From contig CALCZP010000008.1 in NCBI GenBank assembly GCA_937903035.1, positions 21,551-85,550 on the forward strand: a stretch of 64,000 nucleotides of DNA, read 5' to 3'. The notes below the pieces were generated by a model, which ran no database searches, was not told where the DNA came from, and saw only the letters and a program-made list of their open reading frames with translations. The translations under genes and the position numbers were made by a program. Positions 30,958-62,510 of the stretch are shown piece by piece; position 1 is the first letter of the stretch, and the number at the start of each line of letters is the position of its first letter. This stretch comes from an uncultured bacterium (GTDB lineage: Bacteria > Patescibacteriota > Minisyncoccia > Phycocordibacterales > UBA9973).

Positions 30958-32013
30958 CTACAACACCTGATCTATAACTCCCCCTCCCACAAGAACAGTG
31001 TCTTTATATAGAACGAGTGACTGTCCAAGCGAGATTACACCATCATATGAAAGGCGCACATGGGTCTCATCAACAATACAGACTGGAAGTTGTTCACCGT
31101 GATAGCGGATTTGGGCAGTGTATAAGGCATGATCAGCAGTCGTTTCAAGCCAGTTTGTATCACGAAGCACAAGTGTCACTTCCCCATTTTTTGCATCGAC
31201 ATTCTTTGCATTATGTGAGACCACGAGAATATTCCGTTCAATGTCTTTACCAACGACATAGTACGGCTTCTGATCAGTACTTCCTTTGGTAATACGAAAG
31301 CCATGGCGTTCACCAAGCGTATGAAAATACACCCCATCATGCTCACCTACTTTCTCGCCTCGCGTATTAACGACATCACCAGGCTTTTCATCAATATAGT
31401 GTGCGAGAAATTCGCGCATGTCGACTTCGCCAAGGAAACAAATACCCTGACTGTCTTTTTTAGTTGCTGTCATAAGACCTGCACGCTGCGCAATCGCTCT
31501 CACTTCTGGCTTTTGAAGATGCCCGACCGGAAAGAATGCACGCTTGAGGTCGTCATTGGTAAGCATCCAGAGAAAGTATGACTGATCCTTGCTCGCATCA
31601 ATACCCTGCACAAGCTTTCCATCGATGAGCTGCGCATAATGTCCTGTTGCAAGCGCATCTGCGCCGTGAGATTTAGCGTACTGCCACATCGCACCAAATT
31701 TCACAACACGGTTGCAGAGCACATCAGGGTTCGGCGTACGACCGGCACGGTATTCACTGATCATATAGTCAGCTACCCCTTGTTTGTACTGATCAGTCGC
31801 ATCGAGAAAATGAAATGGAATATCAAGTGCAGCGCAGACACGCATTGCATCGCGCTTCTCATCGATCCAGGTACAAGGGATCCACTCAGGTGACCATGTT
31901 TTAACAAAGATGCCATGAACCTCATGACCCTGCTCTTTCAACAGATATGCGGCAACTGACGAGTCTACCCCGCCTGATATTCCAACAAAGATTTTCTGCA
32001 CCATCGTGCTCAT
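30958..32013 (-). CDS. mnmA: tRNA-specific 2-thiouridylase MnmA
   Basis: PP-loop VGISGGVDSSVAAYLL; catalytic Cys region; 351 aa. Confidence 0.9.
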   Translation of the reverse strand: MSTMVQKIFVGISGGVDSSVAAYLLKEQGHEVHGIFVKTWSPEWIPCTWIDEKRDAMRVCAALDIPFHFLDATDQYKQGVADYMISEYRAGRTPNPDVLCNRVVKFGAMWQYAKSHGADALATGHYAQLIDGKLVQGIDASKDQSYFLWMLTNDDLKRAFFPVGHLQKPEVRAIAQRAGLMTATKKDSQGICFLGEVDMREFLAHYIDEKPGDVVNTRGEKVGEHDGVYFHTLGERHGFRITKGSTDQKPYYVVGKDIERNILVVSHNAKNVDAKNGEVTLVLRDTNWLETTADHALYTAQIRYHGEQLPVCIVDETHVRLSYDGVISLGQSLVLYKDTVLVGGGVIDQVL

Positions 32014-32083
32014 ATGAGCACCACTATACTATGAGACTTGACATATTCCAAGATTGACCTAGAGTAAAGAAAAACTATTTGTT

Positions 32084-32776
32084 ATGAACATACAAAAAAA
32101 CATACTTTTATTTGACTCAGACATCCTGGACACAGATGAGGATATACATCCTATAGAACTATTGTTTGTTAGAGATATGGTGACTTTTGTACAAGATAGC
32201 AATTCATTTAAAGAGCAAATTGCAAATAAATCTTGGGACATTATTTTTATAAATTTTCAAACAAGACTATTCTTAAAGATAGAAGATGCTCAATTAGATG
32301 AATTTGTACAAATTGTTATCGCCTCTCAACCAGGTAGTTGCTGCAATGTAGCTATTACAAATGATAGAGATCAAATCTCTATGCTGAAAGAAAAAGGGTT
32401 TAGTATTTTCTCTAAAAAATATAACATTGCCAGAATTAGAGAAGAATTTAAAATCTTTCAAAAAGTTTTAACGACTAGTGATATCCAAGAATATGTAGCC
32501 GACTATCATCATATGTCAGCTACAAAACTTCTAGAGAAAACTAGGAATAGAAACATTGTAGAGCCACGACAAATAGCAATGTATCTCTCGCACCATCTGG
32601 TAACAAAAAATTTAAAAAAAGTAGCTAGTGACTTTTATTTAAAAAACCATACCAGTACTATTCATGCACTACGAACAGTTAACGATCTCATGGATACAAA
32701 TTCTGCTATAAAAGAAAAGGTTGATTTTTTATTCTACAATCTTCGAACTGGTCTATATCTAAAAGCCTCCTTGTGA
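32084..32776 (+). CDS. Atypical receiver-like domain fused to DnaA domain-IV-like HTH (230 aa), AT-rich gene
   Basis: C-terminus IVEPRQIAMYLSHHLVTKNLKKVASDFYLKNHTSTIHALRTVNDLMDTN parallels DnaA domain IV; N-terminus NILLFDSD...WDIIFINFQ...VQIVIASQ...FSIFSKK resembles REC beta-strands with Asn at the phospho-Asp position. Confidence 0.5.
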   Translation: MNIQKNILLFDSDILDTDEDIHPIELLFVRDMVTFVQDSNSFKEQIANKSWDIIFINFQTRLFLKIEDAQLDEFVQIVIASQPGSCCNVAITNDRDQISMLKEKGFSIFSKKYNIARIREEFKIFQKVLTTSDIQEYVADYHHMSATKLLEKTRNRNIVEPRQIAMYLSHHLVTKNLKKVASDFYLKNHTSTIHALRTVNDLMDTNSAIKEKVDFLFYNLRTGLYLKASL

Positions 32777-32790
32777 GGCTTTTTTATTTA
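32762..32790. terminator. Bidirectional terminator
   Basis: AAAGCCTCcttgtGAGGCTTTTTTATTT. Confidence 0.55.
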
Positions 32791-33326
32791 AGATTGAGCA
32801 ATTTCTTGAATACTTCGTACGTTGCGTATGCGTCAGCAAATGCACTATGTGCCTTGGCATTTTGAATCTCAAACTTTTCACAAAGTGCGCGGAGCGAGAG
32901 CTTACCTACATCATCGTTGTTGTGGAGTACCCCAAATGCAACGGAGAGCGTATCGATCTTTTGAAAATAGAGTTTGTTCTCAACGCCTGTTTGTTTGAAT
33001 GCCGCATCTATAAATGAGTAGTCAAACATTGCATTGTGCGCCACAAACACTGCGCCATCAGTCAAATCTGCAAATGTCTTCATCGCATCAGCGAGAGGGA
33101 TTGCAAAAAGCCAGTCAGCCTCGTTGTACCCATTGATACGGAGCGCTTGGGGATCTGCGGTTTCAATATGCATCGGATGAATCTTAAGATCAAGCGTATC
33201 AGTGACGGTAAGTACGCCATCCTTGAGTTTCGTCAGCACCACACCAAGCTCAATAATCTCAGCTGTTTCAGGATTGAGACCAGTAGTTTCGATATCGACG
33301 AATGCGAGCGATTGTTGGAGGATCAT
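32784..33326 (-). CDS. DnaQ-like 3'-5' exonuclease (DEDDh; Pol III epsilon-like)
   Basis: Exo I FVDIETTGLNP; Exo II VAHNAMFDYSF; Exo III H...D near C-terminus. Confidence 0.8.
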   Translation of the reverse strand: MILQQSLAFVDIETTGLNPETAEIIELGVVLTKLKDGVLTVTDTLDLKIHPMHIETADPQALRINGYNEADWLFAIPLADAMKTFADLTDGAVFVAHNAMFDYSFIDAAFKQTGVENKLYFQKIDTLSVAFGVLHNNDDVGKLSLRALCEKFEIQNAKAHSAFADAYATYEVFKKLLNLK

Positions 33327-45553: not shown

Positions 45554-46044
45554 AAAAAGGATCATTTTTTAAGCGACTCACAGGTTCTCTCAGCTTTAGT
45601 GAGGATGAAGAACAGCTCGATGGAGCTACTCCAAAAGAAGATAGTGCACCAAAACGTGACATACCTGTTATCTCAAGTGATGGCGAACGATTAAGCACCC
45701 AAACTGATGAAGAAATCGGCGAACTCCCCGTCGACGTCTATGAGACTAACAATGAAATTATTATTCAGACACTCATTTCTGGTGTCACGCCCGATCATCT
45801 TACCATCAACATCACTCGTGACATGGTGACCATCACTGGCAAGCGTGAAGAGAACAAGCATATCTCAGATGATAGCTATCACGTACGAGAGCTCTATTGG
45901 GGCTCATTTGGCCGCCAGGTAGCACTTCCTGTCGAAGTCGATATAGATGAAGCAGAAGCTATCGAACGCCACGGTATGCTCATCATCAAGCTCCCCAAGA
46001 TTGACAAAGCCCGCAAAGCTGCACTGAAAGTAAAGTCTATCTAA
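45550..46044 (+). CDS. Hsp20/alpha-crystallin small heat-shock protein
   Basis: ACD core DVYETNNEIIIQTLISGVTPDHLTINI...MLIIKLPK; overlaps prsW stop. Confidence 0.85.
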   Translation: MKKGSFFKRLTGSLSFSEDEEQLDGATPKEDSAPKRDIPVISSDGERLSTQTDEEIGELPVDVYETNNEIIIQTLISGVTPDHLTINITRDMVTITGKREENKHISDDSYHVRELYWGSFGRQVALPVEVDIDEAEAIERHGMLIIKLPKIDKARKAALKVKSI

Positions 46045-46054
46045 ATGAAATAAA

Positions 46055-46089
46055 AACACTCCGTTTGTAGCGGAGTGTTTTTATTTTTT
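46055..46089 (+). terminator. Rho-independent terminator after hsp20
   Basis: AACACTCCGtttgtagCGGAGTGTT + TTTATTTTTT. Confidence 0.65.
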
Positions 46090-46122
46090 GTACTCAGAAC
46101 CAGGACTCAAATGTGACACTAT
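46090..46122 (-). other. Degenerate copy of tRNA-Phe 3' end (T-arm + acceptor), about 80% identical over about 33 nt, 28 nt from the intact gene
   Basis: gtactcagaaccaggactcaaatgtgacac vs gtgctcagaaccaggctcgaactggtgaccc. Confidence 0.5.
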
Positions 46123-46150
46123 TCCCATTCAGAGGATGCAACTATTGTTG

Positions 46151-46223
46151 TGCTCAGAACCAGGCTCGAACTGGTGACCCTTCCCTCTTCAGGGGAATGC
46201 TCTACCAACTGAGCTATCTGAGC
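46151..46223 (-). tRNA. tRNA-Phe (anticodon GAA)
   Basis: Reverse complement GCTCAGATAGCTCAGTTGGTAGAGCATTCCCCTGAAGAGGGAAGGGTCACCAGTTCGAGCCTGGTTCTGAGCA; loop CTGAAGA. Confidence 0.85.
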
Positions 46224-46270
46224 AGTTGGTGGTCCCTATTTTATACACGAAAACGGCTTTTCAGGCAAGA

Positions 46271-46546
46271 TTATGAATCAGTTGTAGTACCTTTATATTG
46301 GTTGATCAAGTCTCTAAAGGTGTTTGCATCAGCACTCCCACCAAAATCGTAAACTCCTTTGAACTGGTCAAGCAATGGCTGTACAAAATAGAACGCTCCG
46401 ACTGACAGAAGGATAATAAACACCCAGTATACCGTACGAAAGATCATTGCATTACGCTGTACACGATAGAGCTTGTGCAAAATGACATTATTGTCTTCGA
46501 TTTTCGCCTCAAGCTGTACAAGTCGCTCTTCAACCTTTGGATCCAT
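46271..46546 (-). CDS. Small membrane protein (91 aa, 1 TM)
   Basis: ORF in AT-rich island. Confidence 0.4.
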   Translation of the reverse strand: MDPKVEERLVQLEAKIEDNNVILHKLYRVQRNAMIFRTVYWVFIILLSVGAFYFVQPLLDQFKGVYDFGGSADANTFRDLINQYKGTTTDS

Positions 46547-46626
46547 ATAAACAAAAGTATAGCATGAGGAATAGTTCTTAATTAAAAAACACCGAATAAT
46601 CGGTGTTTTGATTTACTAATTAGAAT

Positions 46627-47031
46627 TTATTCAGATGCAAGATTTAACCCATACATAAGCAAAGTTTCTACAACTTCGTTTATACTTTTTTCTCCAAAAG
46701 TACGGAATTTAAGAAGATCTTCCTTTGTATATTTAAGGAGTTCTTTAACAGTAACAATGCCTGCTTTTTTAAGACAGTTCATTGCTCTATTAGTTAAGTG
46801 CAATTCAGTTACGTCTGAATTAAGAATTTGTTCCTTATCTTCAATGTTTATTTTTTTCTTTGAATGTAAGAGATTATTCGGTAAAGCATAGGTAATTTCA
46901 AGCTCTTTATTAGAAGGAGTAACTACCAAACTTGTCATTATTGAACCTTTTACTATATAACCTTCTTTTTTTAGAAATTTCTCCAAATCTTTAAAATTTA
47001 GATTAATTTTTGAGGTCGTACTTATTTTCAT
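46627..47031 (-). CDS. Standalone protein with RNA polymerase alpha-subunit C-terminal-domain (alpha-CTD)-like HhH module (134 aa)
   Basis: LHLTNRAMNCLKKAGIVTVKELLKYTKEDLLKFRTFGEKSINEVVETLLMYGLNL parallels E. coli RpoA 260-320 [55 protein letters not shown]; AT-rich. Confidence 0.6.
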   Translation of the reverse strand: MKISTTSKINLNFKDLEKFLKKEGYIVKGSIMTSLVVTPSNKELEITYALPNNLLHSKKKINIEDKEQILNSDVTELHLTNRAMNCLKKAGIVTVKELLKYTKEDLLKFRTFGEKSINEVVETLLMYGLNLASE

Positions 47032-57794: not shown

Positions 57795-58253
57795 ATGAGA
57801 CACATTCAGACACTTCTCGAAGATCCTGGATTCACCTCTTTTCATTCTGTCGTTCGTTCTGCAATTGTTGAGCTCTTTTACTACGAGACAGCATACATGA
57901 AAGGTACTGAAAGTTATTTTCTCCTTAGAAGCGAAGATACTGAAGATATACTTATCAATAAAAAATCTCTTGCGATCAAATCAATCCTTCTAGTTATTAG
58001 CAATCCGTTCATACAAGTTGCACAAACTAGAGTACAACTTGTATTGCGTACAATACTAGAAAAAGCAGGAGAGCGTTTGATTGAAAAAGATGTTTTTAGA
58101 TCAATCGAAGACTTCGGGAACTTTATGTACACCCCTTTCTATATAAGGAAAAAACATCTCCTTATGAATAGAATTTTTCAAGAAATTGCAAACGTACTTA
58201 GAGAAGAAAGTACATTCAAAATCTTTACACTGTATGCAGTGAAAACCGCCTAA
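57795..58253 (+). CDS. Hypothetical protein (152 aa), AT-rich
   Basis: ORF only. Confidence 0.4.
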   Translation: MRHIQTLLEDPGFTSFHSVVRSAIVELFYYETAYMKGTESYFLLRSEDTEDILINKKSLAIKSILLVISNPFIQVAQTRVQLVLRTILEKAGERLIEKDVFRSIEDFGNFMYTPFYIRKKHLLMNRIFQEIANVLREESTFKIFTLYAVKTA

Positions 58254-59253: not shown

Positions 59254-60498
59254 TTATAGCATTGCTTTTGATCTTCGTACTTTGTGGAATGTCAGCGCAA
59301 AGCGATGTGACTCTGCGTTTGCAAGCAAGATAGCGTATTTGTTTTGTTCGATGAGTTCCTGCGGACCGGAGACGGACTTGGGACGGTGACGTTCATCTTT
59401 GGTGACCGCAATGATCGGAATGTTGAGTGCAAGATCCTTGAGTACTGACTCCGCAGCATTCACCTGAATAGCATTTCCGTCCACGATGATTGCGTTTGGA
59501 TACGACCATTCGGTATGCGCAAGGCGACGAGTGAGGACCTCTCGAAGTGCACCTGCATCGTTTGCCTTGTCGAAGCCTTTGATAGTGAACTTGCGATATT
59601 CATTTTTGTTCGCAACTGCATTTTCAACCACCGTCATCACGCCGACCATGTTGGTGCCAGAGAGATGGGCAATGTCATATGCCTCGAGACGAAACACTTG
59701 CTCATGTCTCGTTGATACGAGGTCACGCTTGATAAGTGACACATCCTGGATATGCTCGAGTGCAAAGACTTTCTGCTTGAGTTCATTCGCTGCTTCAAAT
59801 TTCTCTGCGTTCGCCGCCTTCATCATGTCGCGCTTGAGATCTGCGATGAGTTGACGGAGCTTGCCACCAAAGATGAGCTTGAGTCGGGTGATTGTTTTCT
59901 TGTACTGCTTGGCAGCTTCAGACGACGTCACATCTGGCGCAAGTCCGATCTGTCGATAAAACACGGTATTATCTTTCTTGGATGAGGCGAGATCACGAAA
60001 TGGAAAGATCTTGCGGAGGATCTTGAGTGCTTCACGAATACTACTACCACTTGGGTACGGACCATAGACTGCATCGTAGCTCACCTGCTTTGCCGAACGA
60101 GGAAGGTGCACGGTCTTTGCTTTTGTATCAATATCTTTTTGTCTGACGAGTACTATTTGTGGAAACTCTTCACGGGTAATAGCCACACAGTTGAAACTTT
60201 TGTCATCTTTTTCCTTGGTGTTGTAGTAGGGCGCATGTTTCTTGATCAGGTTTGCTTCCAAAATAAGTGCCTCAAGTGCATTCATCGTCTCCTGATACTC
60301 GACGGTTGCAGCCGTAAATACCATATCCACAATATGTGCTCCGCGTGTCTTGATCACATCAGGAGAAAAGTAGCTGCGCACTCGGTCACGGAGACTGGTC
60401 GCCTTGCCAATATAAAGAATCTTTCCTCCCTCATCACACCAAACATACACGCCAGGCGTGTCAGGAAAATCCAATTTGTCGAAGTCTTGACGAATCAT
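59254..60498 (-). CDS. uvrC: UvrC-like excinuclease (GIY-YIG N-terminal domain; short, 414 aa, no obvious C-terminal HhH)
   Basis: FPDTPGVYVWCDEGGKILYIGKATSLRDRVRSYF is a canonical GIY-YIG/UvrC N-terminus; UvrB-interaction-like helix; RNase-H-like endonuclease region. Confidence 0.65.
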   Translation of the reverse strand: MIRQDFDKLDFPDTPGVYVWCDEGGKILYIGKATSLRDRVRSYFSPDVIKTRGAHIVDMVFTAATVEYQETMNALEALILEANLIKKHAPYYNTKEKDDKSFNCVAITREEFPQIVLVRQKDIDTKAKTVHLPRSAKQVSYDAVYGPYPSGSSIREALKILRKIFPFRDLASSKKDNTVFYRQIGLAPDVTSSEAAKQYKKTITRLKLIFGGKLRQLIADLKRDMMKAANAEKFEAANELKQKVFALEHIQDVSLIKRDLVSTRHEQVFRLEAYDIAHLSGTNMVGVMTVVENAVANKNEYRKFTIKGFDKANDAGALREVLTRRLAHTEWSYPNAIIVDGNAIQVNAAESVLKDLALNIPIIAVTKDERHRPKSVSGPQELIEQNKYAILLANAESHRFALTFHKVRRSKAML

Positions 60499-60531
60499 AA
60501 ATGCAGTGTAGTATAACAGAAAATACTATTT

Positions 60532-60753
60532 ATGAAACAGCTCTTTATCGCCTTGATATTAATGGGAATAATCTCTACCTATTTATTGTTTTGTATTGGG
60601 CCATCGCTAACAATTTGGACAAATTATGGCCAAAATAACACTCGAAATTTTGTAATCATAATTGTTCTAATAATTATTGTTAAACCTCTTGCTTGGATTA
60701 TATGCTCTATCACAAAATTAGTAGCTCCTGAAAAAGAAAATTACTCCATATAA
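60532..60753 (+). CDS. Small membrane protein (73 aa)
   Basis: ORF, 2 TM, AT-rich. Confidence 0.3.
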   Translation: MKQLFIALILMGIISTYLLFCIGPSLTIWTNYGQNNTRNFVIIIVLIIIVKPLAWIICSITKLVAPEKENYSI

Positions 60754-60850
60754 TTATCTAGTTCCTGTTTCGGCAGGAGCTTTTTTATTAAGTGAATAGG
60801 TAAATAGATATATTTATTCCACCAAACATATCATCAACTTCCTACATTTC

Positions 60851-60888
60851 ACATACTCAAACTGAGCGATAGCAGAATTTGAGTATAG
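60851..60888. repeat. Copy A of a 38-nt hairpin-forming direct repeat (acatactcaaactgagcgatagcagaatttgagtatag), 3 nt past the stop of the 60892-61404 gene
   Basis: 30/38 identical to copy B; internal IR TACTCAAA / TTTGAGTA. Confidence 0.6.
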
Positions 60889-60891
60889 AGA

Positions 60892-61404
60892 TCAGTGATG
60901 TAATTCCTTGCGTTGGTTTTTTGCAAGTTTAAATGTTTTGATACATTTTTTGAGACCTATGGTTTGAAGGTATAGTATAAATTCTTTGGGAAGTGGCGAT
61001 GGACCTAGCCAAACGCTTCGTTGAATCATATTGTAGCCAAACTGTTTGAGATGCAAACGAAACCACTCACGCTCTGCCTTGCGATCCTCAGGAATATCAA
61101 ATATGACCAGTAGATCGTTTAGTTGATTACGTACAACCGGTCGAGAAAACAGTTCTAAACGTGTGAGTCGAGACTCCACAGCCGACCTCTTATTTCTATA
61201 CAACATAATACTATCTGTACCCTTACGCCTAATATATCCTTGCTTCTGAAGGCGATATAGTGCATTTGCAACTGATTGGGTTTTGCATGAAAAAAGAATT
61301 GGTAGACCAAGCATACTTACTGGAACACCTTTGTATCTATATTTTGGTTCGAGAAGTAATTTCAATAATTTATCTTCTATACTCAATTTACGCGATAGCA
61401 TCAT
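60892..61404 (-). CDS. PaaX-like / Cas2-fold winged-helix regulator (170 aa)
   Basis: N-terminal wHTH (ANALYRLQKQGYIRRKG); LLVIFDIPEDRKAEREWFRLHLKQFGYNMIQRSVWLGPSP resembles the PaaX middle domain and the Cas2 fold; no CRISPR array or cas1 in the window. Confidence 0.5.
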   Translation of the reverse strand: MMLSRKLSIEDKLLKLLLEPKYRYKGVPVSMLGLPILFSCKTQSVANALYRLQKQGYIRRKGTDSIMLYRNKRSAVESRLTRLELFSRPVVRNQLNDLLVIFDIPEDRKAEREWFRLHLKQFGYNMIQRSVWLGPSPLPKEFILYLQTIGLKKCIKTFKLAKNQRKELHH

Positions 61405-61414
61405 TTGAGTATAG
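61377..61414. repeat. Copy B of the 38-nt hairpin-forming direct repeat (ctatactcaatttacgcgatagcatcatttgagtatag), overlapping the first 9 codons of the 60892-61404 gene
   Basis: See copy A. Confidence 0.6.
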
Positions 61415-61504
61415 GAAATACGCTATCAAATAAATCTAAAGATTAAAACTGTCAAAGTATTGACGAATCATAAATACAATGTAATATAATAGAAAATAAT
61501 TTAT

Positions 61505-61837
61505 ATGAAAATAGAAGACATTATGATTGATGACTGGCATAAAGCTGGTCAGGACATTATTATCCTTGGTCCAGATTGCGAGGAAGAACTCGATACTTTT
61601 GATTTAAACAAAAGTATCGAGGAAAAACTAATAGCTGATTTGGTTCAAAAAGCAAATAAGCAAAACATTGCTATTGAATTAAAAAATGGGAAACTTTTTG
61701 TAAATTCTTCTGAGTTAAACAAGGCAGTAAAATTTTTGAAAGAAAATAGTGTATTTGTCTCAAAAAATGATGAAGATATTTCTGAAGCAAGAAGTAGTGG
61801 ATGTATTCCAGATCCAGGCAATTTGGGAGTATATTAA
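61505..61837 (+). CDS. Hypothetical acidic protein (110 aa), AT-rich
   Basis: ORF only. Confidence 0.4.
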   Translation: MKIEDIMIDDWHKAGQDIIILGPDCEEELDTFDLNKSIEEKLIADLVQKANKQNIAIELKNGKLFVNSSELNKAVKFLKENSVFVSKNDEDISEARSSGCIPDPGNLGVY

Positions 61838-61871
61838 ATTATAAAGCTTAGTACCGAACGGGAACGGCTTT

Positions 61872-62510
61872 TTATTTTTTCAAAATTTGCATCAACGGAT
61901 CTTCTTCCTTTTTATACCCTCTTGCCTTCCCTTCTTTGCGTCCATACTCTTTGATCGCATAGCCGGCGCGTTTCCAATCTTTCTTGGGAATGATCTGCAG
62001 CAAGTCTTGCTCGATCTTGGACGCGTCAGTCGCCTTGGTGAGGCTGAACCGCTTCACAAATCTGATCACATGCGTATCTACCGGTATGCCATATGGCGTA
62101 TCGACGAGATTGGTCATCACTGCAATCGCTGTCTTTCTCCCCACCCCAGAGAGTGTCTGCAGTTTGTCGATATCAAGCGGCACTTCACCACCAAATTCTT
62201 TGACAAGTAACTCTGCAGTCTTTTTGAGATAGCCTGCTTTCATTCTGAAATAATTCACCTTTTGCACATAGGGTTGTATCTCAACAACCGAAGCCTTTGC
62301 CATCACTTGTGGTGTTGGATATTTCTTGAAAAGCTCGGGTGTAATTTTGTTCACCAGTTCGTCAGTCGTCTGCGCAGAAAGTATGACTGCAACAAGGAGC
62401 TCCCACGGATTGCGATAGTCAAGAAACGTCTTGTCACGTTTATACTGTTTCAGCAGCACGGGAGCGATGGTACGCCATATCTCTTGTTGTTGTAGGTAGC
62501 TCTTTTGCAT
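61872..62510 (-). CDS. nth: Endonuclease III-like HhH-GPD DNA glycosylase, apparently without the C-terminal 4Fe-4S Cys cluster; start at MQKSYL
   Basis: LLVAVILSAQTTDELVNKITPELF..., HhH-GPD motif LQTLSGVGRKTAIAVM...VDTHVIRF; C-terminus lacks C-x6-C-x2-C-x5-C. Confidence 0.75.
   Translation of the reverse strand: MQKSYLQQQEIWRTIAPVLLKQYKRDKTFLDYRNPWELLVAVILSAQTTDELVNKITPELFKKYPTPQVMAKASVVEIQPYVQKVNYFRMKAGYLKKTAELLVKEFGGEVPLDIDKLQTLSGVGRKTAIAVMTNLVDTPYGIPVDTHVIRFVKRFSLTKATDASKIEQDLLQIIPKKDWKRAGYAIKEYGRKEGKARGYKKEEDPLMQILKK

Follow-up and report, generated by a model that had tools for sequence, protein, structure and literature searches.

Why should one small gene carry the same palindrome at both of its ends? 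The question is raised by a locus in a 64,000-nucleotide stretch of contig CALCZP010000008.1, from an uncultured bacterium of the Patescibacteriota; this whole stretch is referred to here as the window. Between uvrC and nth lies a gene for a 170-amino-acid protein that combines a winged helix-turn-helix (wHTH) with a Cas2-like fold, and a 38-nt element is found at either end of it. The first-pass annotation saw in this segment a small inserted module, or a gene whose mRNA is bounded by matching stem-loops. We suggest instead, with about an even chance of being right, that the elements are putative cognate operators of the protein encoded between them, through which it would autoregulate and insulate a leaderless one-gene unit and act on a few sites in trans. 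The palindrome pair itself is a defining cis-feature of a large, mis-annotated family of wHTH-Cas2-like proteins in bacteria of the candidate phyla radiation (CPR). The features on which the argument turns are these:

60853..60888, no strand assigned: 3' palindrome, cognate copy of the 5' one at 30/38 identity, 3 nt beyond the stop codon.
60892..61404, minus strand: gene for the wHTH + Cas2-like (PaaX_M) protein of 170 amino acids, identified from the open reading frame (ORF), Pfam, AlphaFold2 (AF2) and Foldseek.
61379..61414, no strand assigned: 5' palindrome with arms ATACTCAA/TTGAGTAT and a centre with GCGATAGC; it overlaps the -10-like TATACT and both candidate ATGs.
61408..61413, minus strand: TATACT, a -10-like hexamer by consensus, 6 nt before the second ATG and within the left arm of the 5' palindrome.

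On the plus strand the two elements read ACATACTCAAACTGAGCGATAGCAGAATTTGAGTATAG (60851-60888) and CTATACTCAATTTACGCGATAGCATCATTTGAGTATAG (61377-61414). Direct reading bore out the 30 of 38 identical bases that had been reported for them, and a repeat search recovered 36 nt at 83%. Each element has the outer arms ATACTCAA/TTGAGTAT around a GCGATAGC-containing centre, and the repeats around the gene are both direct and inverted. Their capacity to form hairpins, also claimed at first reading, was confirmed: both elements fold on either strand at -12.8 to -16.4 kcal/mol (z = -3.7 to -6.1 against shuffled sequences). The pattern TACTCAA-N10-24-TTGAGTA occurs exactly twice in the window and never in 100 shuffles, and the core GCGATAGCA occurs three times where 0.33 occurrences are expected. 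The elements are also placed as first described, with a 3-nt gap between the stop codon (60892-60894) and the 3' palindrome and with the 5' palindrome spanning the annotated start, where it covers both in-frame ATGs (61404 and 61401). In Rfam, the stretch 60300-62000 matched no family (only a sub-threshold chance match to asX2, 19 versus 70 bits), and a scan for intrinsic terminators flagged neither palindrome of the window.

The protein proved to have the wHTH and the PaaX/Cas2-like fold first ascribed to it. Pfam assigns it to PaaX_M (PF20803, 'PaaX central Cas2-like domain'; E = 1.6e-12, 47.8 bits against a cut-off of 24), and CRISPR_Cas2 is matched below threshold (1.4e-4). The AF2 model, with a predicted local distance difference test (pLDDT) of 83, has a winged helix (H9-18, H20-23, H42-54, hairpin 58-68) followed by a beta-alpha-beta-beta-alpha-beta domain; the last secondary structure is H162-169, and the chain ends about 10 residues past the Cas2-like domain. 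A fold search was needed because a PDB search with the family sequence profile gave only marginal matches to PadR, MarR and Cas2 (E 0.06-0.7). The top PDB match in Foldseek is E. coli PaaX (8a39), followed by many Cas2 structures, several of them at a probability of 0.98-1.0, and by the PaaX-like 3kfw and 3l09. The NCBIfam cas2 equivalog TIGR01573 is passed (29.8 versus 24.5 bits, residues 98-132 only) and many PADLOC Cas2 models are matched; the PaaX equivalog TIGR02277 fails (21.7 versus 264.55 bits), its alignment being limited to residues 40-163. The profile search that had been proposed thus returned PaaX_M and Cas2-like matches but not the PaaX_C effector domain, for which Pfam gave no match at E <= 0.1. 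Neither Pfam nor NCBIfam found an HUH/Y1 transposase domain (PF01797) or another known strand-transfer domain in the 170 amino acids.

Likeness to CRISPR Cas2 and VapD, which are ferredoxin-fold proteins, shows in the signature of the beta1-alpha1-beta2 core, where LLVIFDIPE...R...L...G....Q.SVW of the family stands against vvYDI...R...L...G...Q.SVF of Cas2. D103, the Asp of Cas2 type at the end of strand 1 (FDIPE), is the same in all 33 aligned sequences; the Cas2-like half is strongly conserved in the alignment (FDIPE, AEREWFR, Q.SVW.GPSPLP) and the recognition helix is variable. Unlike CRISPR Cas2, the family is fused to a wHTH and bracketed by palindromes, with no cas1 or array in the window or at 78 of 80 related loci. 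No paa (phenylacetate) genes lie near the gene, the neighbours being uvrC, nth, photolyase, ddl and two ORFs without clear relatives (ORFans). Judged by these matches, the product is a minimal wHTH-Cas2-like protein, neither a PaaX ortholog nor, in the window, a CRISPR component. Its true start is likely to be the second ATG (61401), giving 169 amino acids that begin MLSRK as in relatives.

More than 670 homologs were found in Paceibacterota, Nomurabacteria and other Patescibacteria, nearly all of 160-170 amino acids, and 320 stretches of species-representative genomes encode one. Source records call them 'CRISPR-associated endonuclease Cas2', 'PaaX' or hypothetical. The ends of the gene were read at 80 related genome loci (given L numbers here), and at nearly all of them a palindrome stands at the 5' end and a second one directly behind the stop codon. 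Two fixed-centre palindrome detectors overlooked many visibly real imperfect palindromes; the bracket count rests on similarity between the 5' and 3' windows, compared with controls. At 65 of 78 loci this similarity is at least 19/24, higher than in any of 233 control windows taken at the same loci. The density of strong symmetric palindromes is about 24 times greater at the gene ends (72 in 27.5 kb) than in the remaining ~755 kb (81), and nearly all of those at gene ends have a GC-N4-GC centre. Since nearly all relatives share the bracket, it most likely consists of recognition sites for the protein itself and not of insertion scars. A search of the accessible literature found no paper linking PaaX with Cas2, or a wHTH-Cas2 family with flanking palindromes.

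The gene sits among ordinary housekeeping genes, with synteny and constant orientation inside orthologous groups (for example, L21 upstream and RecR/DnaB downstream in 10 loci). Among the related loci there is no conserved partner gene, and the housekeeping neighbours differ between orthologous groups. Some genomes have several loci (3-5): JAENWX carries L041, L048, L050, L059 and L077, and JBAYKO, LCGB01 and JBAYHJ also have more than one. Paralogs of the same genome are only 41-60% identical and differ in their arms. The family is nearly absent from 2.9 million viral contigs; a phage origin was set aside, with a single weak partial match in IMG/VR as its only support.

The architecture of the element is shared across the family. 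An invariant GC clamp stands on either side of a 4-nt centre (GATA/TATC, TATA, CATG, ACCT and others), forming a conserved inner motif of the type ..CTGC-N4-GCAG.. or ..ACGC-N4-GCGT..., and outside it lies an arm of 5-10 nt that is specific to each paralog group (TACTCAAA, GTGACACAA, TACAAAC, TTACCAA, TTCCAT, TAAC and others). The site of the L048 paralog, for instance, is TACAAACTCTGCCATGGCAGAGTTTGTA. Asymmetric centres have no fixed orientation: the 3' site reads TATC in the window, L011 and L017, and GATA in L004-L016. In the subfamily to which the window gene belongs, the inner 4 arm positions are mismatched.

The 5' palindrome keeps a regular relation to promoter elements. Copies that are clear of the ORF have a median span of -58 to -18 from the ATG, and at 29 of 42 loci a tatGaTAtAaT consensus follows the palindrome and ends 6-7 nt short of the ATG. 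This consensus is predicted to be an extended -10 promoter from which a leaderless mRNA starts; the palindrome would then cover the -35 region. With the 5' palindrome upstream of the extended -10 in most relatives, the mRNA there would be leaderless and would not contain it. The window subfamily is compressed, in that TGnTATACT falls within the left arm, the centre holds the ATG and residues 6-8 are encoded by the right arm. The second ATG of the window gene matches the MLS... start of relatives, which carry TGnTATACT. The palindromic site would accordingly overlap the gene's own promoter, as predicted by consensus. At the other end, the stop codon of close relatives of the window gene lies inside the 3' palindrome.

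Arms and DNA-binding domain diverge together. Divergence of the arms correlates with that of the recognition helix and wing (r = 0.53), also when the Cas2-like domain is controlled for in a partial Mantel test (r = 0.44, p = 5e-4). The converse partial correlation, for the Cas2-like domain with the wHTH controlled, is r = 0.09 (p = 0.07).

The search for further copies gave nothing in the window besides the bracketing pair, but cognate copies are present at other genes in relatives and metagenome contigs. About 4 extra ones lie in ~700 kb of flanks of the related loci. A scan of metagenomes turned up 82 palindromes of the window type: 19 directly adjoin a family gene, 21 are within the coding sequence of miaA and 11 directly adjoin a gene for a Cys-rich protein of ~570 amino acids (at its start in 7 cases and at its end in 4), and most of the others are at gene ends. 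Sites directly upstream of the Cys-rich gene are found in L096 (7910-7943) and L102 (2518-2551), and in L043 (3149-4990) this gene adjoins the regulator gene and has palindromes of that paralog on both sides. The Cys-rich protein has no Pfam match and an N-terminus of the form CxxC...CPxCR. By the placement of these sites its gene is a candidate target in trans; the link does not hold everywhere, no family palindrome accompanying the Cys-rich gene in L023 and L027. The second palindrome of L021 lies at the promoter of a convergent PL14 lyase gene. The palindrome inside miaA, ATACTCAAATAATGCTATCGCTGATTTTGAGTAT, encodes LYSKSAIALFEYL, has the GCTATCGC centre that is typical of the family and is found on 21 contigs (e.g., L085 2252-2285, L104 7126-7159, L157 7391-7424), with no family gene near it. 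Neither the Cys-rich gene nor miaA is present in the window.

A separate set of palindromes was noticed in a higher-GC organism (51-56% GC), where at least three near-identical, perfect 38-nt palindromes, ATACTCAAATTATAAGCTATAGCTTATAATTTGAGTAT, occupy intergenic positions (L115 617-654, L135 1251-1288 and L156 2901-2938, on contigs JACXTT010000011 and JACXTT010000264). No family gene lies beside them within those short loci.

Taken as sequence evidence, the family-wide bracket, the promoter context, the joint divergence of arms and wHTH, the PaaX-like geometry and the placement of the solo sites would fit an operator. The E. coli PaaX operator is TGATTC-N27-GAATCA (39 bp), and PaaX represses its own Px promoter by steric hindrance (PMC9493321). 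PaaX of E. coli W (PDB 8a39) has, like the family, an N-terminal winged helix followed by a Cas2-like middle domain. The sites are alike as well, both being long palindromes of ~36-40 bp with distal half-sites, and the 5' palindrome is positioned for the same steric repression. PaaX differs in having ~300 amino acids and a PaaX_C ligand-binding domain, where the family has 170 amino acids and no PaaX_C. The family's sites differ in their half-sites, in standing at both gene ends and in belonging to several paralogs, each with its own arms, without paa genes.

What we infer from this is binding, a dimer geometry, repression and either looping or a roadblock. The protein would dimerise via its Cas2-like domain and set its two winged-helix domains ~24-28 bp apart on the paralog-specific outer arms (TATACTCAAA / TTTGAGTATA in the window), with the conserved GC-N4-GC centre under the Cas2-like dimer. 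The 5' site would cover the -10 box as well as the start of a transcript with no leader or almost none, and, when occupied, might repress the gene's own transcription. The 3' site might close the unit, either as a second operator for looping or as a roadblock insulating it from neighbouring transcription, and the protein may also act at the few solo cognate sites in the genome. A bracketed repressor gene has a precedent in phage lambda, where the OR and OL operator regions flank cI. The arrangement resembles that of looping repressors (lac O1/O2, gal OE/OI, lambda OR/OL) in having one site at the promoter and a second at a distance of a few hundred bp. It differs in that looping is here something we infer, and in that the 3' site is right at the stop codon in nearly all members of the family.

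The surroundings of the gene bear on the question of how it came to lie between uvrC and nth. They include the following features:

60466..60537, no strand assigned: copy A of a 72-nt module, with the real uvrC start (ATG 60498-60496, minus strand) and its TGTTATACT -10, and on the plus strand TTGACG-N16-TAGTAT and the ATG of the 73-amino-acid ORF.
60532..60753, plus strand: ORF of 73 amino acids with two hydrophobic segments, taken from the ORF list, convergent with the Cas2-like gene.
60760..60789, plus strand: intrinsic terminator (9-bp stem, 4-nt loop, T-run) that ends the 73-amino-acid ORF.
61436..61471, minus strand: pseudo-uvrC 5' end, a short upstream ORF (MIRQYFDSFNL, then stop) ahead of the Cas2-like gene; the real uvrC begins MIRQDFDKL.
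61439..61510, no strand assigned: copy B of the 72-nt module, a bidirectional promoter and uvrC 5' end with a decayed uvrC start; it ends at the ATG of the 110-amino-acid ORF.
61505..61837, plus strand: acidic ORFan of 110 amino acids, divergent from the Cas2-like gene.

Copies A and B make up a 72-nt direct repeat (60466-60537 and 61439-61510; 81% identity, spacing 973 bp) that the first-pass annotation did not mention, and both finish at the ATGAAA start of a small plus-strand ORF. The duplicated uvrC-start motif contains TGATTCG (60486-60498, 61459-61471), which matches the E. coli PaaX half-site TGATTC; this is probably a coincidence, as there is no GAATCA partner at N27 and the family sites differ. 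The two small ORFs noted at first, one of 73 amino acids with two hydrophobic stretches and one of 110 amino acids and acidic, both exist. Among the loci compared, the 73-amino-acid ORF is present only in contigs of this organism. The gene caller used by ENA chose over it a 45-amino-acid ORF in another frame (60501-60638); with its promoter-like TTGACG-N16-TAGTAT and its intrinsic terminator, the 73-amino-acid ORF looks the more plausible gene. The 110-amino-acid ORF has one distant relative of 107 amino acids (36% identity, E = 1e-6) among 1.8 billion representative proteins. Within it lies an inverted repeat (61589-61621) with near-perfect 16-nt arms, CTCGATACTTTTGATT / AAACAAAAGTATCGAG, which was flagged as terminator-like on the minus strand.

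The distinct composition first ascribed to the segment holds only in part: its GC is 0.29-0.40 versus 0.45-0.50 in the flanks, but equally low values recur elsewhere in the window (e.g., 1-kb bins 32001-33000 at 0.336 and 46001-47000 at 0.354). A second AT-rich island (57795-58253, GC 0.32-0.35) lies between ddl and a DUF5671 gene and holds an ENA-called ORF of 152 amino acids with no Pfam match on record.

The Cas2-like gene stands directly upstream of uvrC in four genomes, those of the window, L029 (uvrC 73% identical), L011 and L017, and is thus old at this site. The small ORFans differ from genome to genome (73 and 110 amino acids in the window, 136 in L029, 77-83 in L011 and L017), and the variable modules are separated by copies of the uvrC 5' end with its compact bidirectional promoter. 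The core of this repeat, TTATGATTCGTCAAGA, is present in 4 copies in L011 and 3 in L017, each before a separate gene module, and these copies include a 28-nt stretch at 96-100% identity; L029 has a degenerate copy. On this sequence pattern the site looks like a hotspot of insertion or duplication whose module boundaries are the duplicated uvrC 5' ends, not the palindromes. No integrase is present there.

The last of these modules in L011 and L017 is a compact type V-F-like CRISPR-Cas unit between the Cas2-like gene and uvrC (L011 5984-8345, L017 3295-5580). It comprises a Cas12f/TnpB-like protein of 442-462 amino acids (PADLOC Cas12_x1 7e-30; NCBIfam TnpB 9e-22), an N-terminally truncated Cas1 (TIGR00287 6.6e-25) that is frameshifted in L017, an array in which a 39-nt repeat occurs 2-4 times, and, downstream, a conserved stretch that is non-coding. 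Direct repeats of the uvrC start, 16-28 nt long, lie on both sides of the module, which has no cas2 besides the neighbouring wHTH-Cas2-like gene. With such a Cas12f-Cas1-array module beside the gene in two relatives, a functional link to CRISPR adaptation would be conceivable. Homologs of Cas12f and Cas1 and the array repeat are absent from the 64-kb window.

Several observations weigh against operators. Many positions have different base pairs in the 5' and the 3' site of one locus, both of them Watson-Crick; the ratio of compensated to one-sided differences is 0.71 (offsets 1-15), or 0.40 without possibly misregistered loci, where independent substitution predicts at most 0.06. Compensated substitutions also occur between orthologs (L044 versus L083, L055 versus L061), and in L044, L053 and L083 the outer arms differ almost completely between the two sites. 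Going by these base pairs, self-complementarity of the arms is maintained in its own right, beyond any shared protein specificity, which implies either selection on structure, as a hairpin or cruciform, or templated conversion from arm to arm in a palindrome that is kept by selection on other grounds. At 38 of 75 loci the neighbour downstream is convergent (median gap 75 nt, largely filled by the palindrome), so that the 3' site cannot there be the downstream gene's operator, and an operator just past a stop codon has no established role. The inside of miaA, with 21 cognate sites, is an odd place for an operator; the invariant Cas2-type Asp leaves room for a catalytic and not purely structural role; the -10 box of the window gene lacks the TG extension; and the duplicated uvrC-type promoter upstream could transcribe through the window's 5' palindrome.

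Such pairing would be expected if the protein recognised structure, that is, if it bound and perhaps nicked or protected DNA hairpins, cruciforms or single-stranded hairpins, the bracket being its own hairpin family with a few copies seeded elsewhere. The model is the partnership of repetitive extragenic palindromes (REPs) with REP-associated tyrosine transposases (RAYTs), in which a single-locus, vertically inherited gene is flanked by its own family of short hairpin palindromes. The paralog-specific palindrome families, the extra copies at gene ends (here also in miaA) and the compensatory evolution of the stems are all REP/RAYT-like (compare the REPINs), as is vertical inheritance at single loci; the arms keep pairing irrespective of identity between sites, the GC-clamped tetranucleotide centre flips freely, and the Asp is invariant. 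We regard this as a serious rival, though an unlikely one: the family protein is not an HUH/Y1 transposase and has no other known strand-transfer domain, copies are few per genome (none extra in the window, ~4 in the ~700 kb of flanks) where REPs number tens to hundreds, and the 5' copy lies at a promoter. Nor does hairpin stability explain the GC clamp, because the inner 4 arm positions are mismatched in the window subfamily, and templated conversion between arms could yield compensated changes without structural function. Quite unlikely, too, is its broader form, a previously unrecognised domesticated partnership of Cas2-family protein and hairpin palindrome, a non-HUH analogue of REP/RAYT in which each paralog recognises, and possibly nicks, protects or propagates, its own repeats. 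The stems could also act as RNA, independently of the protein, as a 5' stabiliser or insulating terminator and a 3' terminator or stabiliser of the transcript. As RNA read from the gene strand, both window elements fold well (-15.2 and -16.4 kcal/mol), the 3' copy follows the stop codon family-wide, half of the downstream neighbours are convergent across a gap that is mostly palindrome, and pairing is maintained by compensation. This reading, which revives the stem-loop-bounded mRNA first proposed, we rate as very unlikely. The 5' copy lies upstream of the predicted -10 and start site in most members; arm mismatches show no RNA-strand bias, G.T and A.C numbering 29:28 in 3' copies and 34:24 in 5' copies, with no excess of the G.U type on the sense strand; the stems average 36% GC, and T-runs come after 8 of the 52 copies at the 3' end and 7 of the 55 at the 5' end, with 6% as the background rate. 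It also leaves unexplained the shared paralog-specific arms, the GCGATAGC-type centre and the near-confinement to flanks of family genes.

The two remaining explanations concern the origin of the gene. If it were a mobile cassette, the palindromes would be terminal inverted repeats or scars of a recent insertion, and the AT-rich composition against the flanks, the bracketing by repeats both direct and inverted and the variability of the nth-uvrC region, punctuated by duplicated uvrC 5' ends, would all be understandable. This idea, the main one of the first-pass annotation, is barely tenable and already largely refuted, although of the combination that the annotation named as refuting it, conserved synteny with the repeats absent elsewhere, only the synteny is seen, as cognate copies lie at other genes. 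The same unit recurs at 65 of 78 loci, in conserved synteny and constant orientation within orthologous groups; in four diverged genomes the gene adjoins uvrC; it is single-copy in the window, and its paralogs have diverged to 41-60% identity with different arms; almost no viral contig encodes it, and no transposase or integrase lies nearby in the window. The junction-like duplications stand outside the palindromes, and none abuts them. The gene might instead be a genuine CRISPR cas2, all that is left of a type V-F locus that has decayed, the palindromes being incidental. The NCBIfam cut-off and the PADLOC models point that way, as does the L011/L017 ortholog beside a Cas12f-like gene, Cas1 and a mini CRISPR array without another cas2. 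We hold this to be highly improbable, given that a Cas neighbour occurs at only 2 of 80 related loci, that the family is multi-copy in housekeeping contexts, that the Cas2 match is restricted to residues 98-132 and that the N-terminal wHTH and the bracket, both family-wide, have no counterpart in canonical Cas2. The Cas module of L011 and L017 is moreover split from the gene by its own uvrC-start repeat and looks like an independent insertion at the hotspot.

The family matters in a group of bacteria, the CPR/Patescibacteria, whose genomes are tiny and hold few recognisable regulators. It counts more than 670 members, with up to five paralogs per genome, and as neither the 'Cas2' nor the 'PaaX' label fits it, CRISPR annotations in these genomes need correction. 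Were the structure-specific reading true, the family would represent a new kind of repeat-protein partnership with a Cas2 fold, and the domesticated partnership, if real, a possible glimpse of how a Cas2-like protein became tied to palindromic repeats. The rule of one gene with two cognate palindromes offers a directly testable protein-DNA recognition code in an uncultured phylum, and it lets target sites be predicted, among them the gene for the Cys-rich protein, the PL14 lyase gene and the site inside miaA.

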